DNA of 62,415 nt, filler included, from Kipferlia bialata (Eukaryota), in NCBI GenBank assembly GCA_003568945.1. It is 5 parts of 5 records of this genome, joined end to end, with 100 filler letters (N's around TTAATTAATTAA, not from the genome) between each part and the next. Parts side by side here need not be neighbours in the genome. Positions count along the whole stretch, not along the records: positions 27,047 to 40,441 come from BDIP01000949.1; 4 more parts are not named here. One strand, given 5' to 3'. Shown here one piece after another: positions 18 through 62,290 of the stretch (positions within the stretch are counted from its first letter, which is position 1; each line of letters begins with the position of its first letter). The position numbers and the translations under genes were made by a program. Below the pieces are notes generated by a model. That model was not told where the DNA came from, did no database searches, and saw only the letters and a program-made list of their open reading frames with translations.

Positions 18-1035
18 GATCTGCTGGCCAAGGTCACCCCCTGCATCCCCCCCCCCCCCCCCCCCCCCCTTCCCATTTATTGTCCTGACCCCCAGGGCCA
101 AGGCTGCTGAGGAGATTGACCGTGCCAGTGACCAGATGCTGACCCTGGTGCTAGACACCTGCAGACTGGTGGAGAGCAGGGCCAAGGCAGACGTGGGGTC
201 CGGAGACTCCATCCTGGGTGACAAGACTGAGGGCGAGGAGGGAGAGGAGGGCAGCAAGACAGACCTGCCCCTCTTTGTGCAGAGGAAGCTGGAGATGTCC
301 CGCTCTATTGTGGCTGCCAAGCGCATGCAGCAGAAGCAGAAGCACGCTGTGTCTGTGGCCTACGAGGAGAAGAGACGCCTAGACGCCTTCATCAGGCTGG
401 TCGACATGATGCTCACACACTCTATTGCATACATGGTGCAGGACGCTGCCAATGCCCTGGTCAGACGCACCCAGGTGGTGGACGAGACAGACAAGGTACG
501 GGGCGGAATATCTGTAGTGCCTCTATATACTCCCTCTATCAGTATATATATACTTACCCCCAGCAGAAGAGAGGCGGTGCCAGACAGAGACTGGTGCCCG
601 GTCTCATTGCGTGCCAGCTCAACATCCCAGACGATGCCTCTGCTGTTGGGTACGCACCCTCCATCCCCTCTGTGGGGGACACCCTCACACACTCCATCGA
701 GGAGCTCATCTCCTCCTCGGCCCTGTCTACCAGGCTCGTGCACCTCCACGCACTCAGGGGGTACTTCGTGCACCCCGACAAGCCGGGTCTGCCTAGGCCC
801 CAGTCCCTCTCGGAGGTTCTGTCCCTATACGAGCCCCACGTCACTGCTCTGGCATCTCTCAACAAGGTACATACTTGTACTCATTGGTGGTAATGAGTAG
901 TCATATATTTGTATTCCCACACTTATAGCTCCATACTCACTCCAGGTGTTCGAGGCCTCTGAGACCTCTGCCGCATCCTTTGCACAGGAGTTCGAGCCTC
1001 TGCTGGTGGTCGCAGACTTCAAGAGGTACGGTGTA

Positions 1036-1075
<40 letters not shown>

Positions 1076-3971: not shown

Positions 3972-4010
<39 letters not shown>

Positions 4011-13434: not shown

Positions 13435-13534
13435 NNNNNNNNNNNNNNNNNNNNNNNNNNNNNNNNNNNNNNNNNNNNTTAATTAATTAANNNNNNNNNN
13501 NNNNNNNNNNNNNNNNNNNNNNNNNNNNNNNNNN
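13435..13534. other. Artificial contig-joining linker (44 N + TTAATTAATTAA + 44 N)
   Basis: All-frame-stop 12-mer inside Ns; the same linker recurs four times. Confidence 0.97.
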
Positions 13535-13996: not shown

Positions 13997-14302
13997 GATG
14001 TAACATGTAGTGAATAGGGGTGTAGAGAGAGAGAGAGAGATTGTCCCAGTCACCCAGATGAACATGAGTGGGGCAATGTGAGATGTATCAATAAGTTAAG
14101 AGAGAGAGAGAGAGAGTGGGAGATGAACATGAGAGGGGCAATTTGAGTGTATGACAGTGTGTTACATGCCATTTTGAGAGGTGTATTGTGACCAGTTATA
14201 CCGATTCAGTGTCACTGCTGATACTGATACTGAGTCTCTGAGAAACGAGGCGCTCCACTTTGGTTAACTACTCTTCTGAAACTACCTGTATTATTCCCCA
14301 AT

Positions 14303-14694
14303 AGAGTCTTGTTACAAGACTCTTGTACGTCACGCATAGTGTCTCTCGTCAGATTGGTGTTTCAAGAGTCTCTGTGTTGTGTATAGTAACTCGTGTTGAA
14401 TGCCCCATACAGTACAGTGAGTAATGTATATATTGAGTTATAACTTATAACTGTATATAGGATAATGCTATATACACTCATTAATTGAATGCTATTAGCA
14501 TTTAGTATGCAAATCAATATACTATTAATCTACTATTATGACCCAAACAGAACACCCCTGCACACACAACTGAGACGAAAATGATAGAGTCATTCGCGAG
14601 ATAGAACGGCCATAACACTAACGCGAAAGATGATAAAGATTACAGGTTTTCTATGGATTCTGTTCAAGGTTTCTATGGACTTAGTCCATAGAAA
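14303..14694. repeat. Single-base-centred inverted repeats upstream of the SPRY gene, including one perfect 7+8+7 footprint motif (14306-14327)
   Basis: GTCTTGT-TACAAGAC-TCTTGTA; AATGCTA-T-TAGCATT (14488-14502); TTTCTATGGACT-T-AGTCCATAGAAA (14670-14694). Confidence 0.85.
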
Positions 14695-15059
14695 GTCCAT
14701 TTGACTATGTTCTAGTGGTTCTGTACTGTCACACAGTTTTCAGCTGTGTGTAATACCCATCCCGTACAGAGTCCTTGTCGTGCAATTGTGCATCGGTGTG
14801 AGTCTGAAACGGTCAACACTAACGTTTCCAACGGAACGTTTGGAGCGTCTCAATCAGATCCTTTAAGGCGAGTACATATGGACCCACTCTCTACCACACA
14901 GACATAAAACGAAGGTAAAAGTAGTCTCCTATTGTGCTATTATGGTCGATATGGTCAAGGATAGGATTAGAAGTCAGAATCATATCCCTTTGGTGCTACA
15001 CATATACACTATTAGCATATTAATGCTATATTCTACTCTATTCTCTACTCACTCCACAG

Positions 15060-19741: not shown

Positions 19742-20394
19742 CCTCATACCGATATATATGAAAGTGTTATATACCTAATAGCGGCTGTAACTACGGGCTC
19801 TGCCTCTGCCACCGTGTATCCATGCAGGTCCACAGACACAAGGCCAGACTTGGATAGAGCGTCAGACATCCTGAGGGGTGAGGGCGAGTTAACATAATAC
19901 AATGAACAGTCATGACATATGCATAGTCTCATCCAAGAGGTCTGTCAAAATATCCCTACATGATACGTACACACAGACATCTCATACCTAACTCCATATA
20001 TCACACCCTTACCTATACCCCTTTCCAGTCTGACTGGAGAGCTCATATGACTAACTAATTACACATTTACGTTCAGACTATATTGAATATATTCCTCAAT
20101 ACTTCTACACTTGTCTTACCTGTCCCCCTTCCTAGTCTGTCTGGACAGCCCTGCCCTGCCCACAGCCTGGGTGGCACGGCCTAGGCCTGTATTGAGAGGT
20201 ACATTTGCATATGTATATACATATTCATATATATATATAGAGAGAGAGGGTGGCACGGCCCAGGCCTATGTTAGAGGATACTATACATATACTATACAAA
20301 CACTATAATCTATTTGTATATAAATACTGTGCATACATCACTATAGCCCTGCCCACAGCCTGGGTGGCACGGCCCAGGCTTGTAGGAAGAGGTA

Positions 20395-20447
<53 letters not shown>

Positions 20448-23400
20448 GCACGGCCCAGGCCTGGGTGTTAGAGGTATATATATAATATCTACTGAACATG
20501 GGTACCCGAGTGGGTCTCTATACAATAGTGGGTATACATATCCTAATATAATCATATACTCATACATACTCACCTCCTAACGACACCCTCCCGTCTTGAG
20601 CTGTGGCCCATCTCTCCTCGGCAGTCTGTCTGGCAGAGCGGGCTCTGGAGGCTAGGATGAGATAGAGCATCTCTGTAATATTTGTACCATTCCTTAAATA
20701 CTATACAGTATATAGACTGCTGCCTTACCTAGCACCTGTCCCTTCCTCTCAAAGTACTGAGAGGCCTTGGGTGACTCCTCATAGTGCCTGGGGTTAGTAT
20801 GGGGATATTCAACACAAAGTGTATGTATATATAGTCATATACAATTGAGGAAAAGGCATACATATAGATGTAAATGTATGCACTACTCTCTCTATACAAA
20901 CACATACCTGACTAGGTTCATGCACTTGTTGTATGCCTTGGTCAGGGCAAGGGCCTCGGCAAAGATGACACTCCTTGTTATGAGAATGAATATACATGTC
21001 CATATTCAGTTTCTTAGAGACTGATACAATACATATTAATTATGATTAGGACATTAGTCAGAGCAAGGGCCTCAGCAAAGATGACAGACCTGATATATAT
21101 GAGTCATAATTAAATACTATAACATAGTACTATAATACTAGGTACTGTATGACACGAAAAACATACATATGGTACATATATAGTATATGAATGATATCAG
21201 GGCAAGGGCCTAAGGAAAGATGACAGACCTGGTTATAGGGTATAACAATGATAATAATGTGAGAGAGAATAACTATATATGTATATATATATGTACATAT
21301 ATGTACAGGGTCTCGGCAAAGATGACATACACGCACAATGTCAAGGGGGTTCAACTAGAACAATAATTCTGTATTATCTGTCAATCATCAGATTATCCTG
21401 CCTTATCCTGGCAGTTCACTGATCGATACACATAGTGTTTACATGTATGCATACACCATATCTATACTTCTCCTACCTGTCAATCATGAGGTTGTCCTGC
21501 CTAATCCTGGCAGCCAGGTTGGGTGGTAGGGAGCTGGGCAGAGAGGGTAACTCTTGAGAGAGGTACCGAGAGGTACTGCCAATGCCAAACTCTCTCTCCC
21601 TCTCTCTCTCCCTCTGCCTGTCTGCCTTGTTACGCTGGGTCGGGCCATACTCAGGGACAGTCTGATATAAGGATAGTAATATAAGGATGCTTAATGTGTA
21701 CATAACATATATATATGTATGCTGGGTCGGGCCATACTCTGGCACAACAGACTATGGTTAGAGTACTAACATATGAGGTATATATTTATATGAGGAGAGT
21801 AATACATGTGTGTACCTGTATATGTGGTAAGTGTATATATACATATATATATATATGTGTGTGTGTGGGTGTGTTAGTCTGTGTGTGTGGCCATACTCAG
21901 GCACGACGGCCCATGGTCAGAGCAGAAAATACACAGTGTTAGTAGAAAGCAATATGAATAAAATAGAGACGTACTGGTTGGGGCCATACTCTGGCACAAC
22001 GGTCTATAGTTAGAGTGCATATCTAAATATCTTTGTGTATGTATGTATATATATGGGTATAGGTAGATGGGATACATTTTCACTATATATACTATACATA
22101 CCTCAAGGTGGAATGTCTGCCTATATATCCAGAGATCCCTATATATACATGTATACCTATTTATACATAGATCCCAATATATAGTGTACCCACAGAAATA
22201 CGAACTGGGACAAATTAGTCTTCTACATAGAGTACACATACCTCAGGGTGGTGGAATGTCTGCCTCTGCCTGTCTCTCTCCTGTGCCTGTACTAACTCAG
22301 CCTCTCTCTGTCTCTGTGCTTCTCTCTCCCTCTCCATCTCTCTCTCCCGCTCCCACATCTCATTGACCCTTGCAGTGGCTGCCTGACCATCTGAAGGTGA
22401 GGGTATATACATATATTTATATATATATATATGATGATGAGAGACACTTATATTGCTGACCATCTGGGGGTGAGGGCATATGTGCAAAAATATGTCAAGA
22501 CAGAGAGGAAGAATTACAGCAAGAGTATGCATGGAGGCGGTGACATACTAAGCCTGGTGACACTCACCTGCTGCCGTTGCAAATGGATCAACCCCATATC
22601 CAGCCTGATAATGAGACCATAATAGACTCTTGAAGATTGTAGGTTGATGGCGCAATATCACAGAAATATAGTAACAATGAGGGGGTCCCATATACCTGGC
22701 GGATGGCGCTCTTTGAGTTTGCGTACTCCTTCTCTCTCTCTCTCTCCCTTTCCAACTCTCTCTCCCTCTCACGCTGCTGGTAGAACTGTTGGTGAGTGGG
22801 ACTAATTCGTGTTTACACTATAACTATAGTATATATACTTACTCTTTGGGTGAGAGGGACTCATATACCTCGGGGTATTCCTTATATATAGTATATGTAC
22901 ATACCTCCTTTGCCTGCTGTGTCTGCTCCCACTCACTGGGGGCATCCTGAGTGTGAGGTATATGCAAAGATAACAGATATATATATATATATATACACAT
23001 ATATATATACAGATATATAGATATATTCCACACTCACCGGGGGCATCCTTAACATAAGTATACGTAAATATATATACATATATATATGCATACACGGGGG
23101 ACATCCTGGTATGAGGTATAGACAATCACATATGAGTATCTACATACACCCAGAGAGACATTTGTTGATCTTACTTGGTGCATTCAAAAACATACCTCCT
23201 TGAATGTGAATGTCTCCGGCTCTAAGAGATTCACAGAAGGCGGGAGGATGTCATCTGTGAGTGAGGGTAAGACTCCCATGGTGTATATAGAGATATATAT
23301 GTATATACTGCATGAACCTTGACCTTGTGAGGGTAGGACTCACATAGTGTATGACACACATATATACGTAATCGTATAAAATGCATATACCTTCCTCATA

Positions 23401-26946: not shown

Positions 26947-27046
26947 NNNNNNNNNNNNNNNNNNNNNNNNNNNNNNNNNNNNNNNNNNNNTTAATTAATT
27001 AANNNNNNNNNNNNNNNNNNNNNNNNNNNNNNNNNNNNNNNNNNNN
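26947..27046. other. Artificial contig-joining linker
   Basis: 44 N + TTAATTAATTAA + 44 N. Confidence 0.97.
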
Positions 27047-27167
27047 AAAAAAGACTAAAGCAGCAACCCCCCCCCCCCCCCCCCCCCAATCATAGTACAG
27101 GGTTGGTTCCTATGTACGCTGCTTTCGATAGACATGACATCTAGATATGGTGTATGCCTCACTTCAG

Positions 27168-30100
27168 GGTGATCTTGTGTTGGAGGAGGCACCTCTGCTG
27201 CGGGTGAAGAGGTGAGAGTGCTCTACCCACAAGATTCGACGTGACTATCATTGTAGTATGAATATCTATGCTCTCCTTTCATTCTCACAACCAGCACAGA
27301 TGAGACCATCCAGGCCCCCTTCTCTCTGCTGACAGAGAGGGAGCAGGGGCTGTACATGGAACTGGAGGACGTGCACAGGTGCTGCACTCCCAACTCTATT
27401 CACTACTCAGTTCTGCTATCCGTTGTATGTCAACATTAATAGTATTTACAACTTCTCTCTCTCTCTATATATATATGTTATGCCGAAAGTCACTCTTCGC
27501 GAGCTCTATGTCAGGATGCAGTTTCGTATCAGATCTCTCTTCTCACTCTCAGGGCAAGTGGCGGACCCAAGACCCCTGAGGGCATATGGAAGACCAATGC
27601 ATACTCAGCCCTTGATGGAAACTCACATGTGTTCCACATCATATCTAGGTACATACCCAGTCAGTGTGTGACTACTGTTATGATACTCCTCTCTACTACT
27701 TCTCCTTCTGTGCTAATCTGTTATCACCTCGTGTCCTCTCCCTCTTTCCCCCAGGTTCAACCACTCCTGTGCCCCTAACCTCATGATGAGCTACCCAGAG
27801 GACGGGAAGGTGCGATGTATGGGCTATACTGTCTACTATTCTTTCCCTTTCTCTCTCATATATATCTCCCCTCACCCCCAGCACCTGTGCATGTGCCGCA
27901 TGGCTGTGGACGTGTGTGAGGGGGAGGAGCTCACACTCTGCTATGCCGACCCATGGTATGGCATCCATCTCATTCCTGTGATCTAATTTCATACTTCATA
28001 CTTCAATCCAGTATTTGCCACACATGCGTTCATGTAAGGTATCTAACTGAACAGGGAGTGTCGTGCCGACCGCCAGTCCACCCTATCTCGCTATGAGTTC
28101 ACATGTGGATGTCAGGTCAGGGGGGAGTATATACATCAAACCTTTTGCTTTCATAGTGATCCCCCTTGCCCCCCCCCCCTTCCCTCACCCCCAGGTGTGC
28201 TCCCTGTCAGGTGATGCCCATGTCCACAGTGACACAATGAGAGAGAGGGCAGGCGTCATCAAGGGGATGGTACGGAGGTGGCATAGTACTTCACTGACAG
28301 ATACCGGTCTGGTTTATTGGTATCGACTCACCCCCAGCTTGGAGAGGGTCTGTCCAGGCGACTCAGCATGACGTCCCCCCAGGAGCTCCTAGACGAGGTG
28401 GAGGAGGTGGGTCATATAGTATTGTATCTCATTACTAGATAGTCTCACGGTCATCTTCAACTAACGTCTAGTACCTCGAGATATACCGCACTGAGCTTGG
28501 ATGTGACCCCGCCATGCCCTTCGTGTGAGTGGCTGTCCTATAGCGATTCATGGGCACTATATGGTGTTTCCTGTTCATCAATTGTGTCGATGTAGTGATT
28601 CATCAGTTGTGCACCTATATTTGGACTCCATGACTCTATATCTCACCTCAGGCTTGAGCGTGCCTTGGTGACTGCTCTTCTGTGTGGAGAGCCAGAGTGG
28701 GCACAGAAGTATGCAGACGAGGCACTAAGGGTGAAGGTGTGAGTTACTAAACAGTTCTGTCGTCTATTGTAACCTTATTGTAATAATGGGAACGTCCCCT
28801 CGACGTGATACCTCTATTCTCATGTCCAGCTGTTGTGTGAGGGAGATCACCCCGGTGTCCAGAGGTACCGGAGATACGCTGAGGTATGCATAGTTAGATA
28901 TTTTTTAGATATTTCTATATCACCAAGGATACCTCTCATCTAGTTCTTCTATCCCACCGCAGTGTCCTTCCACCCACCCTGGTGCTCTCACGATGGGGGT
29001 AGGGCCTAGCGATGACAGGTACCGGTAACACACATACATTTCTATCAAACATTCTATTATTGTATAAGTGGTATGTATTTGGCTAACCCTAGTATTAGTA
29101 GAGTTCATTCGGCCAATCCACGTGAAGTTGTGGACACTCCAACAGACAACCCCTTTGAAATTGTCACTATAGAGGATGACCGACTGGGAGTAGTGGCTAC
29201 CAGAGACATTGTCAGGGTGGGGTACTGCTATACATAACAAACTATAGTGTAGTGATATGGTCGTCATAGATCGGTGTCCATTACTGACTACCTAGGGAGA
29301 GTTGATTCTGGAGGAGGCACCTGTTCTGTCCCTTTCTAGTGTGGCATGTAGACTGGGAAAGAACTCAGGAGCTAGGTGAGTCGCCTATCACTACACCGGA
29401 GAGGTCTATGTGTTCTAAAGAGAACCCCATATCCTATTGCACTAACCTCCAGCATTGGTTCACTCATCCTGGAGCGTCTGTCCTACAATGTGTCAGCTGA
29501 TAAGAGAGATGGGTTCTGGGGCCTTAGGAGGGACATCAGGTGCATGAGTCTTCATGATTACGCGGCATTACTTGTCAAGTCCTGTATAATTATGTATATT
29601 GTCTTCTATTCTGTGTCCTTACCGCCAACCCCAGTCCCATCGGCACCGCTGATGCAGCTGAGAGTGTGTATGAGTGCAACAGGATGGCTGGGGACGGCCA
29701 GAGTCAGAACATATACCTGCTCGGCTCAAGGTGAGTTGTTATATGCTGTGGACTGCTCTTCATACTCAGTACGCATCTATGTGCACCTTACCAACTCTTG
29801 ATACCAGGTTCAATCACAGCTGTCTCCCCAATGTGATCAACCTGGACATGTCTAAGGAGGTATCAAACTCTACACGTATATATCACTATATGTATCACAC
29901 TGTGGTCACCGTACACTTGATTGAGAGTGATATTGAGCGGTATAGTGAGGGATATATAGTGAATCATCTGTCTGACCGCCCAGCACCACATGTCGTTCCG
30001 AGCCCTAAGAGATATAGAGGAGGGAGAGGAACTGACAGTGTGCTACTTTGACAGTCGTGGGAACCTCACGTACGTACTTGAACTATTCTATGTCCATAAC

Positions 30101-31436
30101 GTGTTATGGTTTCTTTCTGCCCTGATGTCAGTATGGATCAACACGAGAGAGAGTCCAAGCTGATGGAACTGCGTGGCGTCAGGTACGCATCTCACCCATG
30201 ATATATCTCCCATTCACACTGTGTCAATATCATGCTCTGTCTCACTCAGCGGGTGTGGGTGTGAGCTGTGCTCTCTGTCTGGGTCTGCCCTGAAGAGGAG
30301 TGCCAAGAAGAGACTGCACATGCAGGCAATATACGACAGTATGGGTAACCGAGACCAAGAGCAGCTGGCCAAGCTCCAGGAGGTATGGAGAGGTGTCAAT
30401 CTCTGCAGCGAATGACAACACACCTAGTTGATAGGAGTGGTAGTGTACTGGCCTACTAGGGCCTTCATGGGTCTAACCTCAGCTGATTGCCTTCATCGAG
30501 GAGGATATGCAGAATCCTCACCAGGCCTTTGAAATGTAAGTGAATTGTTATGCAATTGATAAGTGACTGTGAAGTGAATGTATGTAGCTATCACATGTGT
30601 TATTATTCTTACCCCAGCCATCACCGGGCCATGTTGGTGTCTCTGGACAGCGAGCCAGATGCTGACTCTGCAAGATTCCACGCGACACAGGCGCTGAGGT
30701 GCAAGGTGAGCTATATTACAGACTGTCAGGTTGGAAGAACCGCCACCTTCTGCTATGGTCTTTGTGCAATCCCAAAGCTGTACTGAGTGTTACTCTCTGA
30801 CTTCCAGATGCTGTGCGAGGGAGACCACGCTGGTCTACACGCCTACAAGAGATGGGCAGAGGTATGTTGGAGACGTGTCATTAGTTCTCAGCCAGTACTT
30901 GTTCCTTTTGGGGAGTCAGACTCTGTCTATTGTGTCACTATTGAATACATACCCAGTGTTCTCACCCAGTGTCCATCCCTTGCCCATCCTACACTGCCGT
31001 CGGAGACAGATGCTAAGGTACTGAGCATCCATGCTGTGGATAGTTGTCTTACATATCAAGTGGACTCATGAAGACCCCTTTCCCCCACCCCCAGCCACTG
31101 GACTTCCCGTATGTTAGTAGGGACCCTGAGGTATCCTTTGCCCATGCGCTGAGACAGCATGAGGAGGAGGTAGAGGAGAGGGAGAGAGAGGAGAGAGAGG
31201 CTAGGGCCATGGAGCAGCCGAGGTGTGTAATATCTCACTATGTGTGCCTCAGTGTTTCTGATTATAATATGAACTATCGTATGCAGTCTAACACTAGTAA
31301 GAAGGGCGGAAAGGGTCGGAAGAGAGGTCAGAAGAAGGGAAAGAAGAAGGGAAGAGAGGAAGAGGAGACTCTGACGAAAACTAGTAATATGAGTGTTTAT
31401 AGAACCATGTCAATGTGCAAGTATATATGTGTTTAA
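27168..31436 (+). CDS. Protein lysine methyltransferase with two tandem SMYD/Set5-like SET modules, 5'-partial; frame of the last exon uncertain
   Basis: Module 1: GDLVLEEAPL...IWKTNAY...ISR|FNHSCAPN...GEELTLCY...YEFTCGCQ|VC...LLCEGDHPG. Module 2: LGVVATRDIVR|GELILEEAPV...GSR|FNHSCLPN...ALRDIEEGEELTVCY...CGCELC...MLCEGDHAG. Linker exons splice in frame with no stop. Confidence 0.85.
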
Positions 31437-34800: not shown

Positions 34801-37098
34801 ATCACAGCTCCACTTACCATCCATCTCTCGTAAGGCCACTTTCTCTGACGTCCTGTTCCGTCAACGCCTAGTGCCCTGGTCGTCAGTACTATTAATATGG
34901 GTAAGCTTGCATAGAATGTATGGCGAGGCATATAGTCACCAGTGATGGCACCACGGACCTCAGTATGGACGCACAGCACGAGTGGATGCCAGCCCCATAG
35001 GTCAAGAGATGCGTCCCTATCCTGAGGACTGATACCACAGCCACCAGCCTGGCACTGTGCTTGAGGCCTATGAAGTTCCACCTGACACTCTCCAAGAATG
35101 GATACCGGGCAAAATCCACCCTGGGTTGAGAATATAGCCAAAGTGAACACGAAATAACAAGAAGCGTCATGATAGACATCCATTCACCTATTGGAAATGT
35201 CATAAGCGAAGAATGAGCACATGAATGCCTGGAGACAGAGGAAGAAGAGCCCAACACCCTTCTGGCTCTCAGTCTGAGGTCAACATGAGACAGTGAAATA
35301 GAAGGATACAGCAACACTGTCTCCAATTGGAAGAGTCAACCACAAAATCTTCAACAATCATACATATACCTTGTGCATGGAAAAGATGCTCAAGAGCGGG
35401 TTCCGTGCATAGTCGGCGGTGAAACACAGCCTGCGATGAGGTGAAATGACATGTAGGATGGAAGCCATACTGGGACTCCCAATATAGAACAATCGGAAAT
35501 GCTATACAGGGATGCCTATGTGTGAGGCTACCTGCTGATCTGGGGGATTGCCTTGAGCAGCAGCATGAGAGTATCCGTCTTGGACATCCTGTCAGGGGAG
35601 GGTGCAGCAGCGGCAGGACGCTGCACGGTTGGTGACTCGGGCCCACCCTCTCTCTGGGGTAGGCTAGGGCCTCTGACGTGTCTTGGCTTGGCCTCCAATG
35701 CCGAGGTCACACCACGCAGGCCATCAGCGAGCCTACGGTTAGAGAGAGCCAGGATACTCGGCAGATCAGATGCCAATATATATATCATGACTGCACATGC
35801 ACAATAGGGATAGTCACCTGTAGAGCGGGGAGTCCTCGGGGATACATGAAGACAGCCTCTCAAGAGCCTCTACCAGTGTTCTGTCGACTCTGGCCACCCT
35901 CTCCGACACGCTAAGGTGGCCAACGGTAGGCGTTGGGGCAAGAATACCACCACACCCACTGCTCTCTGATGCCTCGGGTTCAGACACACACACACACTTC
36001 ATACCGGACCCAGATATCCCAGAGCCTGCGGAGTCACACACTGTGAGTGGGTGGAGGGTGGGGCCAGTCTCGGGGGGCTGCAGGGAGGATAGGGACGACG
36101 AGTCCTCCCCGTCCACTGAGTCTAGGGACCCAGAGTAGTTGGGGATGCCGGCATAGAAGGCTGAGTCCGACTCAGAGTCTGATGTCCCCTCACCGCAAGG
36201 CAGCACATGCTCATACATGTCAATAGACACCTGCCGCACAGGGAGGTGGTGGTAGGAGGCAGGGCAGACACCCTCCTCAGGGGCACTGTCATGGTCATGG
36301 TCATGGGCGTCCCTCTCCAGAGGCAGACTCCCCATCGACTGCACCCTCAGCGTATGGGGCACAGAGGTGGTACGGACAGGAGACTCAAGGGGAGAGGGGT
36401 CGGAGGACTCGTCCTCGACATGGACAGGCCCCTCATGCACCGGGGCCATCTCACTGGGGGCACTGTACGCACCATTGGTACCACTAGGACCCTTAGTCCC
36501 GTGTGGGACACTGTCTCTGGCACCTCTGCAGGTATCGATGTCTCTGAGGGAGCTGTAGGGGCACTTCCCACCCCTGAAGTCAGCTAGACACGCATCCAAG
36601 TATATCATATAGTACACCATCTGCAGTGATACCGCATTATACATAAGTGGTCCCACCTGCTTGAGTCTGTGTACTGCCTGCTGTGCAGCCTGGCCACAGA
36701 GTGTATGCGGGCCTTGTCCTTGGGTAGGAGGAGGGGGGCCTCGAAGCTGGAGTGAGCAGAATGCACATGAACACATACACACACAGATAAGGGCACCTGG
36801 CGTTGATGACGTCCCAGGGTGAGTGCAGGATGGCTGCCACGGTCGTTATGCCAGTTGTGGATGCCTCCCTACCGCTGGAGGTGGAGGTCGAGCGCTCAGG
36901 TTCGCAGCAACAGCTGTCGCCTGGGTCAAGTGCCACGTGCATGGAGGCATCCACTCCCTCGGGCACCATCAGCTGGAGTGAGAGGACAGGTATGAATGGG
37001 GAGAGGTGTGGAAGATAATGAGCTCGCTAAGGGGAGGGGGGGGGGGGGGCATCCTTCAAAACCCATGCCATCGGGGGGGGGCGGGGGGGTGGGGGGGT

Positions 37099-37129
<31 letters not shown>

Positions 37130-37441
37130 TACCACTTGGGCAACAGGCTCCGCCACTATATAGTAATACTAGGTCTCGCTACACCCACTACAATACACAG
37201 CAATGTATATATACATGGTGTCGTATATGAATGGTACCTAATAGTGCACACCAGAGCACCCCTCTCATGTTCATGGACCCCCCCTCCCCTCACAATCACA
37301 GTACAACCACTGTATAGACTCAGTGGATGCTGCTGGGGGAGTACAGACTCTGCAGGGTGGGGGTATGCTCTATTGTGCTATGAATAGTGAAACCGGAAGG
37401 CGGTACCTGAACCCTTTTGTAGTTTTTGAATGTGAAGACAT
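31835..37441 (-). CDS. Membrane-anchored class III adenylyl/guanylyl cyclase-domain protein, multi-exon
   Basis: Probable start MSSHSKTTKGFR at 37441; Ser/Pro-rich N-terminal region; hydrophobic segments ~34150-35200; cyclase domain ~33186-32335 with KLDIVGFT, LNMLFMAFDGIVDKY, TK|IKTVGDAYE, VRCGLAIGPGFAG|VLGRTRVCYEVFG; stop at 31835. Confidence 0.8.
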
Positions 37442-37447
37442 CACGGA

Positions 37448-40099
37448 CACCGACCGTCGGTGACCGACGGTGTCACACCGTGATGTGTCACAGTGACCGT
37501 GATTCACGAATCTGCACTGAGGGCAGACTCCACTGTGGAGTACATTGGCTCTTCTTGTTTTCAGATGAGGATACCGCTATCCCCACTGTCGCATCACGTG
37601 ATCTTACTTGGAACAGGCCCTGTTCAACAGGCAGTAGTCATATGATTTTTCAATATTTTTGAAGCCCTAACAGGCAGTAATCATATAATTATCAGTTCTT
37701 GTTCATCAATCTCCTCTTCAATTGGAAGCGATCGGGCAGGTTGCAAATTGCATCTTGCAATGTCTCTGATAGTTGCAGACTCTGCAGTGGACATGTGTGA
37801 CAAACGGTTTGTCACAAACCCCGAGTGAAAGCACAAGTTTCCCTGATGTTCCGGAATTTCTCATCACTCTGGATCAAAATCTGAAGGTACCAATGGAACT
37901 TAACTGTATTCTGACAGAACATCTTCTCGTTTCTGGGACGCGAAGCCATATTCATGCTACCTTACCCCCAAATGCAACGCGACTCGCGTTACTAGAGGCT
38001 CACGTGTAGTAGTATTGCCAAGATGCTCTTAATACATGGAGACAAGTCCACACTGACAACCTATTCACGACTCGTGAATCACGAGTATATGGGTCATAAA
38101 GTATGGCACTTCAAGTCTCCCTTCAGGCCCTGAAGTTTCAAATGTAAGAGATAGCCCTGAATCAGAGCAATATCATATATTAGAGGTATAGTCTAATTTC
38201 TCGCCCTGGTAATATAAGCTGTATTTCTCCCCCAGTGACTTTGGTAGGTTCTACATAATCTAATGTCTTCAGACTAAAGAGCACTAAAGTTTAGTGCTCT
38301 TGTATTATACAAGTGGGTAGATTCTACTGGTAGAAGTTCTACCGTAGAACTTGAGCCTCAAGACTTGAGGACTTTACCATAATTAGTAAATATCTATTAC
38401 CATAATTCCTAGCTATTTTGAAATAGGGTAGGCTTAGTGTACCTGAAGAAGGAGAGAGAGAGACTGTGTTACCCATATCGAGTGACCTTCGGACCTCCGT
38501 CGCCGGAGAAGATCGGACCTATCCCTCGGTCCATGGTATCCATAAATATGTTTGTATTATATTGATTTTTTTATTTATTTATTTTTTTTTTTTACATGAT
38601 AGTGCTGGCACTATCATGCTGGGACATGAACGACAGTGTGCTTAGACTCCTAACTTAGGAGTCCTAAGATGCAATTGTAAGTGGGTAACAGTGTAACTTA
38701 CGTAGGGTGTTTACTGGACTACAAAATTTCTTTTGGTGTTACAGTTGTACTAAGCTTAAAAGGGGCTCACAACACATATCTATTAAAATGCCGGACTCCA
38801 ACTGACCAGCGTGACGGCCACTCCCACTCTCAGTTGGAGAGGAGGGTGGTGACTCACCAGCGTGACGCAAAGTGAAGACACTAAGCGTGACACAATCAAG
38901 AAGACTCTCTGAGAGGGTGATCCATCTCGACGGCTACATTGTCCATATACAATACGACCGCTACCACCCGCAGAGCCCCACCTATAGTGAACTACAACAA
39001 CGTCTCGAGTCCTTCACGCCTAGAGATTCTGGACATGATGCAGCTTGGAAGAGGCCTGAGGTTGGATAGAGTCTCTATCTCTAATAGAGCTAGTCTCTCA
39101 GGTGTATGTATATGTACTATTGTATAAACACTGTGTAATATTGTATATATAATATATATACATATGTGTATGTCACGCTATATATACTGACCGTCCCTAA
39201 GGGCAGTTACACGTATGAGGTTGGGAGAGTGGCTACTACTAGTAGCCTACTAGAGATGCCGAGTCGGCATTGCCGACTATAGATATATGTACGTATATAT
39301 ATATAAATGTATATCACCGACCCTCAGGGGTCTTCGAGCCTTCCCAGGGTGGGAGTACTGCCCCTGCTGCCTCGGTCACCCCCGAGACTATGCAGCAACT
39401 GGTCCAGCTCCTTACCGATCAGGTAAACCAGTCTGTGGCCAACCTAGGCGCCCAGCTCGCTCAGCAGCTCGGTGGTAGGCGCGCAGGGAACACCCCTGCT
39501 TTGCCTAACATCTTCCCGGAGTACCTGGAGTGCTTTCGGTTTCGCGTTCAAGTCTCTCTGAGATTTGTGATATATAGTATAAGGAATAATGTCAGTAAAC
39601 TATATACTAATAGTATATGACAGTATCATTGATACATATATCGGTCTATGTATATAGTCCTAAGTATATGTGACACATATTATGTATATGTATATACCTA
39701 TGTATGGGAGAGTGGCTGACACCATAGCCTGCCGTTCGCCGAACGGTTCGGAAGTTGAGGTAGATCTTCTAGCCTATAGAGTGAGTGTTTGTAGGCATAC
39801 ATACATACACACACACACATATAAATGTATATATTTATGTGTGTGTGTGTGTGTGTGTGTTCTGGTACCTATGGATATATATGGAAAGGGAGTGACTCAC
39901 ATACACGATATCCTGATCAATACATTCTACCAGACAATCAAATCATATGTATCAATATCATTTTTACGTGTATAATACAAGGTGTATCTATCTCATACCT
40001 ACACAGATGTTGTTTTGGTCGCGGAGTAGAGAGAGAGGCTCAGTAGAGAGGGAAAGAGAGAGAGAGATAGATAGGTTGTGTAGGACCTACACTGTAGGT
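37448..40099. repeat. Dense cluster of single-base-centred palindromes and 7+8+7 motifs (putative transposon excision footprints)
   Basis: Perfect motifs at 37448, 37799, 38064, 38647, 39232, 39256, 40078; one-mismatch motifs at 37611 and 38349; many single odd palindromes (e.g. 37527, 37976, 38121, 38277, 38334, 39065). Confidence 0.9.
38872..39790 (+). pseudogene. Decayed coding remnant of unknown origin (gene or mobile element)
   Basis: GC-rich exon-like blocks with acceptor CCCTCAG at ~39327 (GVFEPSQGGSTAPAASVTPETMQQLVQLLTDQVNQSVANLGAQLAQQLG...); I could not splice them into a complete ORF, and palindromic scars lie between the blocks. Confidence 0.3.
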
Positions 40100-40441
40100 A
40101 AGACTCAGCCGGCACTGGAGAGAAGGTGTGTAGAGAGAGAAAAGAGTGTATATACATCTACGGAAAAGAGGTAGAATGCATAGTACTCGATCTTATACTA
40201 GCAAGAGAGAGTAACATCTGATAGAACGTGGGCGTCTATAACGCGATTGCAATGGTCACAATATATACATATACCTATGTATACCATTAATAGTGATCAC
40301 AGTGTAATTAGTTCACGACTGAAAATGAGTAGTACCGTCTATATAACTACAAGCACTATACATCATACAATACGTCTTACCTGCACATAAATGTGAGTCT
40401 TTGGTCGCTGTGGGCAGACACCACTACGAAAACCCAGTCAC

Positions 40442-40541
40442 NNNNNNNNNNNNNNNNNNNNNNNNNNNNNNNNNNNNNNNNNNNNTTAATTAATTAANNN
40501 NNNNNNNNNNNNNNNNNNNNNNNNNNNNNNNNNNNNNNNNN
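40442..40541. other. Artificial contig-joining linker
   Basis: 44 N + TTAATTAATTAA + 44 N. Confidence 0.97.
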
Positions 40542-40903: not shown

Positions 40904-43900
40904 CCGTAGGGACTTCTGCCTCCTGCTTGACAACGATGTCCCTGCCTGTGACACACGCATATATATATCACACTATATATATATCCTATATATACATACA
41001 GTACATTCGTCTTATGCCTCAGGGACTTCTGCCTTCTGCTAGACAACGATGTCCCGGCCTGTGACACCAGACCAGCAGTGGAGAGGGTTCTAGGTATATA
41101 TAGATACATGTATGTATATATTCTTGTTTCATGTCCAACTCCCCTCACCCCCGGAGGCCTCTCTCCAGTACGTCTCTCTCTCTCTCTCTCCCCCCCCCTC
41201 TCTCTCTCACTCTGTGTATCTCTGTAGTTATGTATATATATATACTTACACTCCCCTCACCCCCAGAGGCCTCTGTCCAGGACCCAGTAGACCACTTGAG
41301 ACAGGTATGGATACTGAGGTCTATATATACTTCAATGTATATAGAGAGAGAGAGGGAGAGAGACATGGAGATACATGACCCAGAAGACCACTTGAGACAG
41401 GTATGGATGTGTATGCACACTGTGATGTATAGAAATTCCATTGACTCTTTGAGTTAAGTAGTGTATACGTGTCATACACCAGATCCTACTTCCGAGGGTC
41501 TGGTGTGATGGCATCAATATACATATACATATGTATATCCATACTATAGTGTATTAACCTCAGGTCCTGCTGCAGAGGGTCAGGCGGGATGGCATCACTC
41601 TGCAGAGCCTGTGGGACTCAATTGACCAGGTATATATATCTCCCTCTCTCTCTTTATTTATTTTTTTATATATTTTTATTGTTTTTAGTATAGCCATCTT
41701 TGATGTGAACAAGTATTATATACCCCCCCCCCCCTGACCCCCAGGCCAAGTCCAATGTCCTGTACCCACACGACATGAGGTATGGGGTCTGTATACATTT
41801 ATTTGTGTGTGTATATACATTATTCTTTTGAGTATGAAAGTCCTACCCCCCCCCCTCCCACCACCAACACCGCCACTACGCCTCATTTACGTACCTATCT
41901 GACTCACTGACTAACCCTCTAGAACTGGTGTTGAGTCCCTTGTGGGCAGGGTGCTGTCAGGCAGACAGTGGGAGACAGTGGCTAGACACCTAGAGAGGTA
42001 GATAATATATATTAATATGAATATATATTTATATATATATACTTATCTGTATATATATATATATATATGTCTGGCAGACAGTGGGAGACAGTGGCTAGAC
42101 ACTTGGAGAGGTATTGTTCCTAGTCATATTGTTGTATCTCTCTCAACACCCTGATTTACTGCAACTTAGGCCTGCGCGAGATGGATTACTGTCAGGATGG
42201 CACTCATATACATATATATCCATATATATATATATATACATGTATATGTGTGTGTACTCACACCGAGGATGGACGGTGCCAGGTGGGTCACCCTGTCCAA
42301 GATGACAGATATATACAACATCATATATATGTATATATCTAGTACTATACACATATTCTCTCTCTCTCTCTACACCCTTATATCAGGATGGACGGTGCCA
42401 GATGGGTCACCCTGTCCAAGATGACAGACTACCTAGAAGGGAAGGGAGAGGCCACGGAGCAGACACCCAGGTACAGTGATATGGTAGTATATACTATATA
42501 TATACTGTATTATAGTAGGTATACCTCCTGGAGGGGTAAGGGGAGGCCACAGAGCAGACACCCAGGTATGGTGCATAGAGTATACATCGTGACATCTGTG
42601 TTTATTATTCAGGTAGCTTAGTTGACAAGCATGTTACTACATTGATCCATTTTTGCTTATGTTCAGGCTACCCAGAGAGGAGCGTCGCCGCAGACAGCCT
42701 GCATCCCCGACAGTAACTAGGTGTGTATATATACATGTGTATATTTCTGTATGTGTATTTGTATGCTATAAGCTACATACGCGGACGTAGCATGCATCGC
42801 TTACAACCACGTATTCTACTGGTATTGTGGTCAGGTATACTTACCTCCCAGACACACTGAGGAGGAGAGAGAGAGAGAGGCAGACACGGACACCATCCCG
42901 CCCTCCCCCTCCAAGATGGCCCCGCCCTCCCCTCCCATGCCTGTGTCCCTGGTGGCAGAAGTACACGATAAGCCTAGGTACGCGAGATAACATATATAAC
43001 TCACACAACAGACTGCAATATATATTATCGTATCCTTTACCCCATAGGACCCCTCATCCCCACCCCTCACACACACATATATAAATGTATGCCTATGTAT
43101 GCCTATATATTCTATATATACCTAACCCTCAGGACCCGTCCCTCCACTGCCACTGTCAGACTCTCTGCCAAAGTGCATATATTGTATTATACATCACGGC
43201 ATACGCATATTATCTCGTTCAGTTTGGTAACTTACCTCAGGACCCGCCCCTCAACTGTCTGCCACTGTCAGACTGCCAGATGTATATACTCTATACCATG
43301 ATGTACTGTATTTTCTAGTATAGTATGTAATATAGTATAACCATCAGGACCCGCCCCTCCACTGCCACTGTGAGACTGCCAGATGTATACACTCTATGTC
43401 ATTGTATACCATATCTATACTGAGTATTATATACTGTATATACTCTATAGACATGCCTAACCCTCAGGACCCGCCCCTCCACTGCCACTGTCAGACTGCC
43501 AGAATGTATATTACAAATACCACACTGTACTGTAATATACTAGGCCGAGTAGTATAATATAGTATAACCCTCAGGACCCGCCCCTCCACTGCCACTGTCA
43601 GACTGCCAGATGTATACACTATATGCCAGAGTGTACCATATCTATACTCTATTGTATATACTAGGCCGAGTAGTATAGCAGGGTTTAACCTCAGGACCCG
43701 CCCCTCCACTGCCACTGTCAGACTGCCAGATGTGGCAAACAGCCCATACCCAGGTATAAAAGCAGAGGCTAACCATACTACTTGTATGGTATGTAATGAT
43801 ATGAATATAGTATTATTTTAATAGTATAATTGATCTGGGGTGGAGGGGGAGTATGGACTGCCAGATGTGGCAAATAGCCCAGATTTGTTTAGAAAGACTA

Positions 43901-46900
43901 TCCATACAGTGTACATGTGAATTGATAATAGTTAACTTCATGGTGTATATAAACTGCCGGATGTGGCAAACAGCCCATACCCTTGGTGTATGCAGATAAC
44001 AACTTGTGACATACCTATAGTGTATCAGATCCTTACCTCTAGGCTCCATCAGCACTGTCTCCCTGTCCGGTGCCCCAGTGGGTCTGGCCAGCCATGATGC
44101 TAGGTATACTAGCATAATATATTTATATATACGTATGCTTACGACGCTAGGTGTACAGACGTGTATAATATTTGATAACAGTGTATACATATCTATAATA
44201 CATAGTGCGAGTATCTTGGTCTCACCCCCAGGTCCCTGGCCACTCTGAGGAACCTCATATCGGAGAAGATATACAGGTACGGGGTATATTAGTACTGTGT
44301 GTCTATATCACACTGAAATTCCCCTCCAACGTAGCGTAGAGACCTTTAACTGTTGTTTGGCACCGATGACGTTCTTTCCCCTCACATACCGACTTCTTAC
44401 TCGTTCTCTCTCTTTCTCTCTTTCTCTATCTCTCCTACCGCTTTTGCGCCATAGACACAACTCTATCTCCCAATGCGCAAATACATATATATGTATAAAT
44501 TTAGTATGTGTATATATACACTTACCCTCTAGGCACCACCGCCACCTCCGGTCCTTCTTCCTCCATGCCGACATGTCTAGGAGTGGGGGCATATCCACAC
44601 AGGAGTTCAGGTACATATATACAGAGAGAGTACATCTACATATATTAATTATATATATACATTATATACGTGTATAGTTTCCACATGCCGACATGTCCAG
44701 GAGTGGGGGCATATCCACACAGGAGTTCAGGTATACATATGTATATAAGTATATATCACATTGCAGTATATTGTTTAGTATATGAAGTAATACTGCATCT
44801 TACCCCCCAGGCTAGCCCTGGACAGGATGAACATTTATAGTATATATGTATATATATAGTATATATGAGTATATAGTATGCACACATTGTATTATTATTA
44901 TACTATGTGTATCTTACCCCCCAGGCTAGCCCTGGACAGGATGAACATTGCCATATCGGAGGAGGTATGGGGATACTGTCATTGTAGTATTGAAACTTGT
45001 TATCATTGAATATATGGATAGAATCTATCCGATAGATATACACGTACATGAAGCATTGAAATTCCCTTAATCCTTAGGATATCAACCAGCTTGTGTCCCA
45101 CTACACCCTGCTTGACCCCGATGGAGTTATATATACGGATATAATTATATATATATGCATATATATTGTAGTCTATCCTTATAACAGGATATCAACCAGC
45201 TCGTGTCCCACTACACCCTGCTTGACACCGATGGAGAGATATCATACGGCACCCTGAGGGACTTTGTCGGGAACACAGCAGGTGATTTAGAGATCGTGCT
45301 CTAGAGGGATAGTGTTTCGCGTTGTGTATACTCTTTGCTAACTCGCAGGGAGTCTTCCTAGGGCAGAGCGCAAGAGGACAGAGCCCAAGAGAGAGACCGA
45401 GACTGAGGGCGAGAGACCTCCATCTGGTGCTAGGTATATATATATATATAGTGTATATATAGTGTCTCTCTTTCGTTCTTCTCCCATACTTACACATACA
45501 GTAGCACTTTGAAAGTACTAATAGTACTGTACCTACATCTTATACTAGACATGGCAACCGCCCCCTCTCCGGTGCCGGTATGCATGACCTCACTAGGGGT
45601 GGGAGGATATACAGCATCAGGAGTCCACCTCCTAGGTATGTATCAGTATGTGTATTCATATATATATATTGATATTGATATTCTAATGTGTGTGTCTCTC
45701 TCTTCTATGTTGCGATACACATTACTGTACAGCATCAGGAGCCCGCCACCTAGGTATTGATCTTCCCCTCTCTCTCTCTCTCTCAGCAGTTAGTTCTCTC
45801 ATTGTGTGGATGCATATGTATATCTCAGTCTATTTGTCCAAACCCTAGTCATAATCATATATACCTCCTCTATTGTGTAAGAAATGATTATTTCTCAGTC
45901 TCTATGTCCTGACTCCTAGGCTGCGTGGCGATGAGCGCCCCAAGAGTGTCATAGACGGCGTCATCACAGGTATGGATATATATATAGATATATGTGTATA
46001 TATATATGTACACATATATGTATGAGTGTCATAGACGGTGTCATCACAGGTACATAACTATATATATATATATATATATATGTTACTGTTACTCAGTCTA
46101 CTGGTGTACGGGGTCTTCACAGGCATGGATGTTAATATTTCTATGTATATATATATATATGTGTGTGTGAGTGAGTGTTTACACATAGATATTGATGTAT
46201 AAGTATGTATTAGTATATATCTATTTATGTCAGTAGACGGGGTCTTTTTCTTGGAGATGACGTTGGAATATATGAGTGTCCCTAGTGTATATCCTTTAAC
46301 ATCCTAATCCCAGGCACCGGCAAGGGAGAGAGAGAGGGAGAGGTGGAGAAGGGCAAGAAGCAGATGGGAAACAGGGCAGCAGGTACTCAATTCCTACACG
46401 ACTACTATATTCCCACATGATGACCTCTTGTGCTATCTATGTTTCTTACGCGATTCACCCTTTAGGTGACTGGGCCTCCCCCAAGGGCCCCAGGAGGCGT
46501 ACCTTCGAGGAGAGTGTCCACACGCAGAAGGCGCCAACTAGGTATAGTCAAAGTATCATATGAGCGCAATAGCATGGTACTCAGTAGTACAGGGCATCTA
46601 ACCCTCAGAGCTGTCAGACAGCTGGCCTCCCACCTGAGGCAGAGGGTCCAGGGTGGCAACAAGAGTGTCTCCCAGGCATTTGCCAAGCTCGTGGACTTCA
46701 ACAGAGACGGAAGGGTCACATTCGACGAGATTAGGTATATGGTCTCTTCTTTTCTTGTCCTTCCTTGACCTTCCTTGATCCGTATTTGACTGTTTCTGAC
46801 CCATAGGTGGCTTGTGCTGCACCACTTCCACATCGACTCCATCAGCAGAGAGACCCTGGACGAGCTCTGTGAGGTAATAGTAATAGTGTAAATATTGAAG

Positions 46901-49469: not shown

Positions 49470-51732
49470 ATATATACACACCTAGTGTCGTTGCGTGTCT
49501 CATCCTGTGTCCCTTCCTCTGGCCATGGTTGAACCCTAGCACAGGGCCCATGCCCTGATGATAAGATAATGGTGTATGTATACATGCACATATATATATA
49601 TACTAGGATATCGAGAACAGTATAGAGTATATATAGTATAGAGATATATATGTATTCCACATCAGTGTGTTGAACCCAAGCACAGGGCCCATGCCCTAGG
49701 GATAAGATAATGGTGTATGTATACATGCACATATATATCATATGTTATAGAGATATATATGTATTCCATCAGTGTGTTGAACCCTAGCACAGGGCCCATG
49801 CCCTGGAGGGGTGAGTAATTAGTATATATATACACACACATATATATATGTGTGTCTGTGTAAGTATGAGTCTGTGTGTAAGGTATAGTACTATACATAA
49901 ACATGGTTGAACCCTAGCACAGGGCCCATGCCCTGATAATGAGTATATACACATGCATGTCGAAAGATATATAGATATACAGATACAAACACTGATATAC
50001 TCTAGAGAACCCAAATAATGCAAATATCACTCTGAATACACATATCCAATACCTGTGCTATACCGACCATGGGCATGAAGAGTATTGCTCTATAGGTGTA
50101 GGTAGGTACCTATATACATATACACATATACATATATATATATACATGTACTATCCATACCTGTGCTATACCGACCATGGGCATGAAGAGCATCGAGGCA
50201 AACCTGAATGTGAGATAGAAAGGGGGGAGAGATACCCATACATAACACATCCAAATGTGTACTCATGTAATAATAGAGAGACAGTTGTATACACATACTT
50301 AGCAGCCGAATATTGTCTACATATTGCTACATACAACATATACATAAAGCCTATCTAGCCGCCAGTCCATTAGCTGCAACCAGGATGTCATAAACATTTG
50401 GGGGTTTATACGCTTTCAATAATGCTATACTATACTATAGATGTATATGTAATAGAGCTATTCACCTAGCTGCCAGTCCATTGGCTGCCACCAGGATGTC
50501 TCCCAGTCTAAAGATATGTCACAATAATATATTCTNNNNNNNNNNNNNNNNNNNNNNNNNNNNNNNNNNNNNNNNNNNNNNNNNNNNNNNNNNNNNNNNN
50601 NNNNNNNNNNNNNNNNNNNNNNNNNNNNNNNNNNNAAGTCTGGGCTGATGCTGGATGATGTGATATAGATATCATGCATGTATATATATTTGGATTATAC
50701 ATATTAATACTAAATATACATCCACGTATCATTCCCTTAAAGTCTGGGCTGATGCTGGATGATGTGATATAGATACCATGTATATATATTAGGATTATAC
50801 ATATAAATACTAAATGTACCTCCTCTAACCATGCCCTTGAAGTCTGGGCTGATGCTGGATGTGGTCTTTGGTCTGAGGTAGAACCACAGGATGAAGGCGC
50901 CAACCAGGTACTGGGGTTGGATGGATAGAATACATATTGCAGTACAAGTAAACTTAGTGTACTGTAGAGTATTCCGGTAGAATTAACAAGAGAAATACAG
51001 TCAGTAATATGGGCAAACTATGCTCATTTACATGTGACAGAGATGTTGACACCGCTGCCCCACTCATACCAAGGTCCAGGGCACCCTTGTGCTCATGAAG
51101 AGAGGGTATATACACAATACTATTCTCATATATACATATATATATACATACATTCATACCTGAGAAAGGGAGGTAGATACTGCTGCCCCACTCATACCGA
51201 GGTCAAGGGTACCCATGAAGAGAGGGTATATAGTATATATATATATATATATACTATACCTGAGAGAGGGATGTAGATACTGCTGCCCCACTCATACCGA
51301 GGTCTAGGGCACCCATGAAGATAGGGTCACCAATCACATTTAGGATGGCAGCAGTGGCCTAGGGATAAGAGGGAGAGAGAAGGAATAGTGTAATGCAAGA
51401 GTAGCGTTCACAATATATAGCGTCCTACCTGTGCCAGCATAGCAATGGTGCCAACATATACCTTTACATATATGTATATATACAAATGTATATACAATAC
51501 AGTCCTGTGTATAGATGAGTATCCTACTAGTATGACACTCACCTGTGCCAGCATAGCAATGGTGGCCCTGTTCTCAACCCTGGGGGTCAGGGGGGGGGAC
51601 ACATATATGAATATGTATATAACCATTCACACCATATGTACATAGAAAGCAAAAGGATCTCAATACAAACATACCTCAGCAGTGGAAGCGTGCCCATGAT
51701 CAGGAAGTACCCGATGGTATAGAGTATATGAT

Positions 51733-53935: not shown

Positions 53936-54035
53936 NNNNNNNNNNNNNNNNNNNNNNNNNNNNNNNNNNNNNNNNNNNNTTAATTAATTAANNNNNNNNN
54001 NNNNNNNNNNNNNNNNNNNNNNNNNNNNNNNNNNN
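53936..54035. other. Artificial contig-joining linker
   Basis: 44 N + TTAATTAATTAA + 44 N. Confidence 0.97.
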
Positions 54036-60955: not shown

Positions 60956-61076
60956 CCTGTGATGGGTGTATAGAGTATGTATATAGAGTGAAAGGTCCTA
61001 AACCCTTGATTCACTTGCTCAAACATGCAGCCCATGAGAGCACAGCAGACGTCTGCTCATTCATTGATCGTTCAGA

Positions 61077-62290
61077 ATGGCCAAGGCAAAGACTGCCCAG
61101 CACCCCGACAAGCCCAAGAGGCCTGCCTCAGCGTACGTGCCTACCCGCACCTTTCTTCACCCTCATACTCAATCCCCACTCACCGTTCTGCGCCTTTTAG
61201 TCTTTTCACATATCCTTTTTCGGCATCTTACTGTACTGTATTCTCCTAGAAGCTCTAAAGTGATCGTAATTGCCTGTGGTGTGTGTTGTGCTACCAGTAT
61301 ATACTCTACTCTTACCCCCAGTTACATCCTGTACATGAAGGATGAGCGTGAGAACGTCAAGAACAACCACCCCGACCTGCCACCCAAGGAGATCATCCGT
61401 GTGGTACGTCATTTCTGCCTCTGATCTCTGTGTATAGACCAATTACCGTGCTTATAGGGTGATGGTGTAGTCTTTGGCCGTTTTGACCTGGTATATGTCT
61501 GCATCTCCCTCACCCCCAGGTTGCCCAGCAGTACAAGGCACTCTCTGAGGCAGAGATGAAGCCATACGTCGATGCTTACGAGAGGTGGGTTCATCTGTCC
61601 CACCTTCTTTACTCCTATCTTCCCTATTTCAATTATGATTAACTCAATCCCCCTCTCTGCCGTCTGCCCTGAAGGAGTGAGGCACACCCAGTATCGTCAG
61701 TATCCCACTTTGTATATATGAGATGACCTCTACTGCATCTGACCCTCAGGGCCAAGGAGGACTATGACATTGCCATGGAGGAGTTCTTTGTGAAGCACCC
61801 CGAGGAGAGGGGCGCCAAGGGAGGTAGGGCCAAGTCTATGCATCCATATCGAGATGACTGTCACTTTTTCTCTAATTCCATACCCCCCCCCCCCCTAACA
61901 CGAGGGTTGTCTGCAATACTTCCTCACTATCCTCCTGTCTCTATCCACTCTGACCCCCAGCCGGAGGTGCCAAGAAGGGCGCTGCCAAGAAGGGCAAGGA
62001 GGACGGGTGAGTATGTTGTATTATGCTATTTGCTGGATACCACTACTCTACTCCACTGACCCATCCTGTCCCTGACCCCTAGGGATGACAAGCCCAAGAA
62101 GGGCAGGGCCCCCACGGCATTCATCCTCTTCAGCCAGGTACATGGATATGTATATGAGTATATACACGTATTTGTGTTGGTGATATGTGCTCTATATTGG
62201 CTGGACATACCATACCCACCGCCCCCCTCACCCCAGGCCTGCAGGAACAAGTACAAGAAGAAGCACGGAAAGTCTCTTGGCTTCAAGGAG
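61077..62290 (+). CDS. HMG-box protein (HMGB/Nhp6-like) with at least two boxes, 3'-partial
   Basis: MAKAKTAQHPDKPKRPASA|YILYMKDERENVKNNHPDLPPKEIIRV|VAQQYKALSEAEMKPYVDAYER|AKEDYDIAMEEF...KPKKGRAPTAFILFSQ|ACRNKYKKKHGKSLGFKE. Confidence 0.92.

Follow-up and report, generated by a model that had tools for sequence, protein, structure and literature searches.

Clustered 22-base forward-inverted-forward motifs in Kipferlia bialata as probable scars of hAT-type transposon excision

Organization of the locus

The window, meaning the whole 62,415-nucleotide stretch of DNA analysed here from Kipferlia bialata, a free-living fornicate protist, is made up of five contigs joined by linkers (N44, 12 bases, N44) at 13435-13534, 26947-27046, 40442-40541 and 53936-54035; adjacency across these linkers carries no meaning. 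An axonemal dynein heavy chain gene at 231-12926, unusually intron-poor given the ~125,000 introns in the genome, includes one open frame of 2464 codons (5532-12926). Two tandem intron-rich genes at 27100-30870 each carry an NHSC-type motif, presumably that of SET-domain methyltransferases, and a further intron-rich gene at 61074-62290 contains what we take to be an HMG-box motif.

The motifs described below are concentrated at the right end of the third contig (27047-40441), next to the likely first exon of a neighbouring gene, which reads like a signal peptide. Sequencing run X2, whose material we guess to be RNA, yielded a contig with one end at 37367 that departs from the window sequence at the minus-strand GT at 37237. 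The X2 contig splices from 37238 to sequence absent from the window, so the genomic contig is probably misjoined at a poly-G run (within 37030-37238). The cluster likely starts ~80 nt upstream of the probable 5' end of this transcript, the start site itself being beyond what such contigs can fix.

Since the mean intergenic length in K. bialata is 597 bp, the 3 kb at this contig end, which lack an intact gene, are long for this genome. A truncated copy of KIPB_009618, likely a pseudogene piece, lies inside the cluster (39327-39560) and covers no motif. KIPB_009618 is a hypothetical Kipferlia-only protein of 233 aa with a Gly/Lys-rich tail; Pfam and Atlas returned nothing informative on the family, which might be retroelement gag-like. 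The features are as follows (strand given where one applies).

37446-37481: nested pair, a younger perfect motif (8-mer CACCGACG, 37448-37469) within an older one (8-mer GACACCGT)
37611-37632: one-substitution motif
37740-37761: one-substitution motif, 8-mer GTTGCAAT
37799-37820: perfect motif, GACAAACC
38064-38085: perfect motif, TTCACGAG
38329-38350: perfect motif, GGTAGAAC; overlaps the motif at 38349 by 2 nt
38349-38370: one-substitution motif
38647-38668: perfect motif, CTCCTAAG
39232-39253: perfect motif, GCTACTAG
39256-39277: perfect motif, ATGCCGAC; 2 nt from the motif at 39232-39253
39617-39635: 7-mer variant (6+7+6) with one substitution
39666-39687: one-substitution copy in AT-rich DNA, less certain
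39733-39751: perfect 7-mer variant (6+7+6; CGTTCGG)
40078-40099: perfect motif, GTGTAGGT
38277-38313: unpaired odd palindromes, arms 12 nt and 7 nt; likely one-sided or decayed motifs
14306-14327: perfect motif on another contig, within a second patch of odd palindromes
45016-45037: perfect motif on a third motif-bearing contig, apparently intronic (read by eye)
37238-37367, minus strand: likely first exon of the neighbouring gene, GT donor at 37237; end of the run X2 contig
39327-39560, plus strand: truncated KIPB_009618 copy, 83% identity over 78 of 233 aa
13535-13818, minus strand: contig start with a 31-nt-period array and a TAGGG-starting terminus, candidate end of a transposon
37627-37677: possible element remnant or plain 22-nt tandem duplication, weak; 35 nt between two ACAGGCAG copies

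Form and frequency of the motif

The stretch contains about 15 identically built "forward, inverted, forward" words of 8 bases (twice of 7) in 3 kb of non-coding DNA. Each consists of bases 1-7 of a word X, the reverse complement of X, and bases 2-8 of X, giving 22 bases, 14 of them constrained. The 8-mers are unrelated from one motif to the next, and with no sequence common to the motifs the binding-site and RNA-structure readings were rejected.

A first-pass annotation had described seven perfect motifs, one-mismatch copies at 37611 and 38349 and a 7-mer variant at 39733, all of which we recovered. It had overlooked three perfect motifs (38329, 14306 and 45016), one-substitution copies at 37740 and 39666, the one-substitution 7-mer at 39617 and the older motif at 37446-37481. 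Between 37446 and 40099 we count eight perfect motifs, one nested, four one-substitution motifs at k=8 and two at k=7, or about 15 events, where the annotation had estimated about ten or more; up to four two-substitution candidates would come in addition.

The length of the word is sharply defined, as the annotation had anticipated in proposing a peak at k=8. The whole window holds 10 perfect motifs at k=8 (eight of them in 37448-40099) and one at k=7, with none at k=6 or at k=9-14, and 30 local dinucleotide shuffles yielded no perfect motif at k=8 or anywhere in k=7-11. Shorter words occurred at or near the shuffled level (16 vs 15.5 at k=4; 3 vs 1.1 at k=5). When k=8 matches were assigned by parsimony, 10 were perfect, five had one substitution and nine had two, against 0, 0.08 and 0.42 in 12 shuffles. 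Four of the 14 imperfect matches, at 43258-43708, proved to belong to a single native repeat, and we dropped them. A scan of the window for k=9 and k=10 motifs, perfect or with up to two substitutions, found none. Eight of the 10 perfect motifs fall in 3.07 kb of the 48 kb of non-dynein DNA (binomial P ~1e-8, for a region chosen post hoc).

Palindrome anatomy and nesting

Each motif can be decomposed into two palindromes 7 bases apart, both with arms of 7 bases around a single central base. The annotation had tied the motifs to palindromes whose centre is complementary to the base adjoining the element, and the palindrome content of the region agrees with this. Between 37368 and 40441, palindromes with a one-base centre and arms of at least 5 bases number 42 against 3.7 in shuffles, whereas even palindromes with the same arm threshold are unenriched (2 vs 3.5) and palindromes with a two-base loop number 5 against 4.1. 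Pairs of odd palindromes 7 nt apart number 11 in this stretch, compared with 0 in 100 shuffles. Arm lengths peak at 7 and tail up to 12. A second patch, at 14200-15000, has five odd palindromes with arms of at least 6 bases and no even ones; the excess is absent from the dynein gene and from the genes left of the cluster.

When the motif at 37448 is collapsed to its 8-mer, a neighbour with two mismatches becomes perfect, revealing an older motif that spans 37446-37481. The alternative collapse, which retains the first 7 and last 7 bases, likewise exposes the older motif. A random left flank combined with the real right flank completes it in 7.5% of trials, two bases being discriminating, and the nested motif thus lends modest support to, and does not prove, an ancestral site with a single 8-mer. 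We found no allele or paralog spanning a motif, nor, in a weak search, a paralog for the 7-mer motif. The cluster also has 20 offset 7-mer repeats, 16 of which contain a spacer; not one of these 16 matches the pattern of a short P-nucleotide footprint.

The 8-mers show a slight preference for T at position 2 and A at position 7 (15 of 32 half-sites; the 16 8-mers behind them include one from the dropped native repeat; P=0.02 uncorrected), a bias that is lost on correction for four positions. Three pairs of motifs touch, a non-significant excess (P=0.07).

Presence of the motifs in sequencing data

That the motifs were made by the library or the assembler seems scarcely credible, even in a fragmented draft in which this contig was likely misjoined around the poly-G run (near 37030-37130). 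Logan contigs from run X1 contain 0.97 of 347 sampled 31-mers from 37140-40440; had each of the eight perfect motifs been a single 8-mer, 0.91 would be expected. An assembler artefact is therefore unlikely, an argument that holds in aggregate and cannot vouch for any single motif. The two sequencing runs on record derive from one sample, and X1 is possibly the source sample, so the containment is no biological replication. No X1 contig aligned to 37140-39100, an absence that may be false, and the motifs were accordingly not seen in an alignment. Decayed and nested copies point to age, contrary to an artefact; the published assembly used TruSeq libraries, for which an amplification step is not described.

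A model of hairpin-mediated excision

Transposases of the hAT group, like RAG, are reported to produce hairpins on the flanking DNA, and hAT target duplications are reported to be chiefly 8 bp, with a preference for promoter and intergenic DNA; the elements themselves have short terminal inverted repeats and subterminal repeats. Ac/Ds footprints are reported (PMC5873905, PMC1978519) to contain palindromes whose single central base is complementary to the one adjoining the element, with arms up to 20 nt in yeast, and the joints form mostly through microhomology. The annotation had suggested that two opened hairpins annealing through the inverted target duplication would yield the present motif. 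We modelled this product with an 8-bp duplication and annealing via the shared 8-mer at nick offsets of 0, 1 and 2 bases, and only an offset of one base reproduced the 37448 motif, letter for letter. As modelled, the geometry of the motif is that of hAT excision.

We therefore consider, with a probability of roughly 0.78, that each 22-base motif marks where a cut-and-paste transposon of hAT type departed and the empty site was repaired by annealing through its own 8-bp target duplication. Insertion of the transposon would duplicate the target X. Excision would then nick one base into each flank, the nick being sealed as a hairpin in a step already established for Ac and Hermes, and a host nuclease, likely Pso2/SNM1 or Mre11, would open each hairpin at least 8 bases beyond its tip. 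The opened hairpins would end in two 3' overhangs, one bearing X and its partner the reverse complement of X; these would anneal along 8 bases, a longer match than any other available. Once the flaps were trimmed, Pol theta would likely fill the two 7-base gaps and Lig1 would seal them, for a net gain of 14 bases. An alternative 6-base match would restore the site exactly and leave no visible trace. The cluster would then represent ~15 rounds of insertion and excision upstream of a gene, at a site that is accessible and where selection tolerates change.

The 8-bp duplication is deduced from the motif itself and not from element flanks, and the two 7-mer variants, which would require a 7-bp duplication, count against a strictly 8-bp model. 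The T2/A7 bias runs in the direction of the Hermes preference (nTnnnnAn). No transposase domain was found by Pfam in 106 window ORFs, comprising 20 long ones and 86 of the 117 listed from non-coding regions. The 20, picked from 86 long ORFs, had only dynein domains and the 86 short ones gave two weak, unrelated matches; 39 ORFs of the cluster had no domain of note. Within the window we found neither an intact element with 8-bp duplications nor an empty allele, and neither the literature search nor the supplements of the genome paper turned up a mention of hAT elements in Kipferlia.

The concentration of motifs at one site fits accessible upstream DNA, local hopping, neutrality and re-targeting of existing scars alike. 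Other gene-upstream stretches in the window have no perfect motif, so promoter access by itself fails to explain the hotspot.

Repair genes and the uniformity of the product

The annotation had pointed to end-joining genes as a check on the model. In the portion of the published table that concerns K. bialata, a survey of a fragmented draft with 84% BUSCO, Ku70, Ku80, Lig4, XRCC4, DNA-PKcs, Artemis, Lig3, XRCC1 and CtIP are absent, while Pol theta, Mre11, Pso2/SNM1 and Lig1 are listed; classical NHEJ is thus reported missing and Pol theta present, an outcome in the model's favour. Pso2 is described as the hairpin opener in Ds excision in yeast. Given the reported absence of Ku, Lig4, XRCC4, DNA-PKcs and Artemis, short and variable footprints like those of plants and yeasts would not arise, and we infer that the uniform shape of the scars may be caused by loss of classical end joining. 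The 8-base annealed core fits a product of Pol theta or alternative end joining, gene presence and absence being taken from the published table.

A broader proposal, which we hold only tentatively, is that in eukaryotes without Ku, Lig4 and Artemis hAT hairpin ends are healed almost only through the inverted target duplication, making the 7+8+7 form a lineage-level signature. If true, one assembly would yield a count and a map of past transposition, and both the duplication length of a vanished element and the break-repair pathway of its host could be read from the scars; the process would also keep adding perfect micro-palindromes to upstream DNA.

Alternative origins

The element class was assigned from scar geometry, no transposase having been identified in the window, and a Mutator-like or other DDE transposon with an 8-bp duplication might have taken the same route of flank hairpins and annealing. 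MULEs in general make duplications of 8-10 bp, 9 bp being common, and those of the Trichomonas type exist in metamonads. Muta1 in particular is reported to form flank hairpins and 8- or 9-bp duplications (PMC5499845), yet its hairpin was sized at 43+43 nt, suggesting no offset, its excisions in yeast were more than 90% precise, and the 9- and 10-base motifs that such elements might leave are missing from the window even with two substitutions allowed. Merlin elements (8-9 bp) were found only in Preaxostyla among 24 metamonad genomes, Kipferlia perhaps not being included, and a hairpin goes unmentioned for them. We regard an origin from a non-hAT element as unlikely. No more favoured, and to our mind distinctly unlikely, is an origin without any transposon, in which replication template switching or templated insertion by Pol theta copied 8 bases of the opposite strand and then returned. 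Template switching does create paired inverted repeats in primate genomes (PMC5453318), Pol theta is reported present in K. bialata, and a palindrome-rich region could promote further events of this kind; however, neither process gives a reason for a fixed length of 8 or a one-base centre, and the 8-mers lack the internal self-complementarity that would prime snap-back. In our mapping to the four-point notation, return point 4 would lie before switch point 1, a class that the human-chimpanzee data, as reported, never contained.

The strong local clustering and uniform product might also suggest a domesticated or programmed system that deliberately cuts and reseals the locus in the manner of RAG in V(D)J recombination, an alternative raised in the annotation. 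We found no support for it. There is no common signal beside the scars, their 8-mers are unrelated, copies are decayed and nested, scars occur on three contigs, and a pseudogene piece sits within the cluster. RAG coding joints contain even palindromes, formed from a nick at the element border; here even palindromes are unenriched, and an offset of 0 fails to reproduce the motif, which argues against a RAG or Transib coding joint. We consider purposeful excision very improbable.

Relation to known systems

The hAT reading shares its elements with several described systems. Ac/Ds footprints from S. cerevisiae, Arabidopsis and Candida albicans (PMC5873905, PMC1978519) have complement-centred palindromes, hairpin opening with subsequent microhomology joining, and the 8-bp duplication, but those reported are heterogeneous, with 28 types among 128 in C. 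albicans, mostly short. In Kipferlia one product dominates, the whole 8-mer serves as the annealed core, and the scars stand in the genome consensus of the natural host. Hermes (PMC6900584, PMC10512250) is likewise reported to leave flank hairpins and an 8-bp duplication, with intergenic targeting and the nTnnnnAn preference that is weakly echoed here, whereas neither a transposase nor an element was identified in the present window. Muta1 resembles it in flank hairpins and an 8- or 9-bp duplication (PMC5499845) and differs in that its excision is reported as mostly precise and that Kipferlia has no k=9 scars. The four-point template-switch mutations (PMC5453318) also place an inverted local copy between direct copies as paired inverted repeats; unlike these, the Kipferlia motifs are constant in length, and their switch points follow an order that reportedly was not seen in primates.

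The chemistry of flank hairpins is thus already known, and it is the fixed, stereotyped fossil form that we did not find in print. Our literature search, which stopped short of the older Tam3, Ascot-1 and yeast Ds footprint papers, found no description of the fixed motif; those papers may show the product as one class. Footprints of excision usually vary so much that they go unrecognised unless the element or an empty allele is also known. A 22-base scar that is diagnostic by itself, with 14 constrained bases, makes the insertion-excision history countable from one genome. With it one could test directly what repairs hairpin ends where eukaryotes lack classical NHEJ, which the metamonad repair survey did not settle, and whether the shape of the scars follows Ku/Lig4 loss across lineages.

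Candidate element ends and other observations

At the start of the second contig (13535-13818, minus strand), a subterminal 31-nt-period array of GTGGATGAAA-like words ends ~50 nt before a terminus starting with TAGGG. This is a candidate DNA transposon end, to judge by its sequence, with no apparent tie to the scars. Its second end is absent from the window, where no paired ends were found, and its terminus had 0 matches in metagenome contigs. Screening for inverted ends flanked by 8-bp duplications returned ~75 candidates, almost all of them AT-repeats or chance matches. The only notable one was at 37627/37670, where 35 nt starting with TAG and ending with CCCTA lie between the two ACAGGCAG copies. 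The 8-base terminus that 37627/37670 has in common with 13818 is at chance level in 62 kb. At the end of the first contig (13270-13402), two 34-nt repeats, 82% alike, are 99 nt apart.

Introns in the window very often carry near-copies, 25-45 bases long, of a neighbouring exon or splice junction, several times over, in TA/GA-rich DNA. The following were noted by eye, with many more elsewhere.

43130-43740: intron near-copies
44560-44730: intron near-copies
49500-49940: intron near-copies
20140-20470: intron near-copies

These near-copies might have arisen by templated insertion during repair, reflect a way in which introns are gained, or come from errors of assembly.
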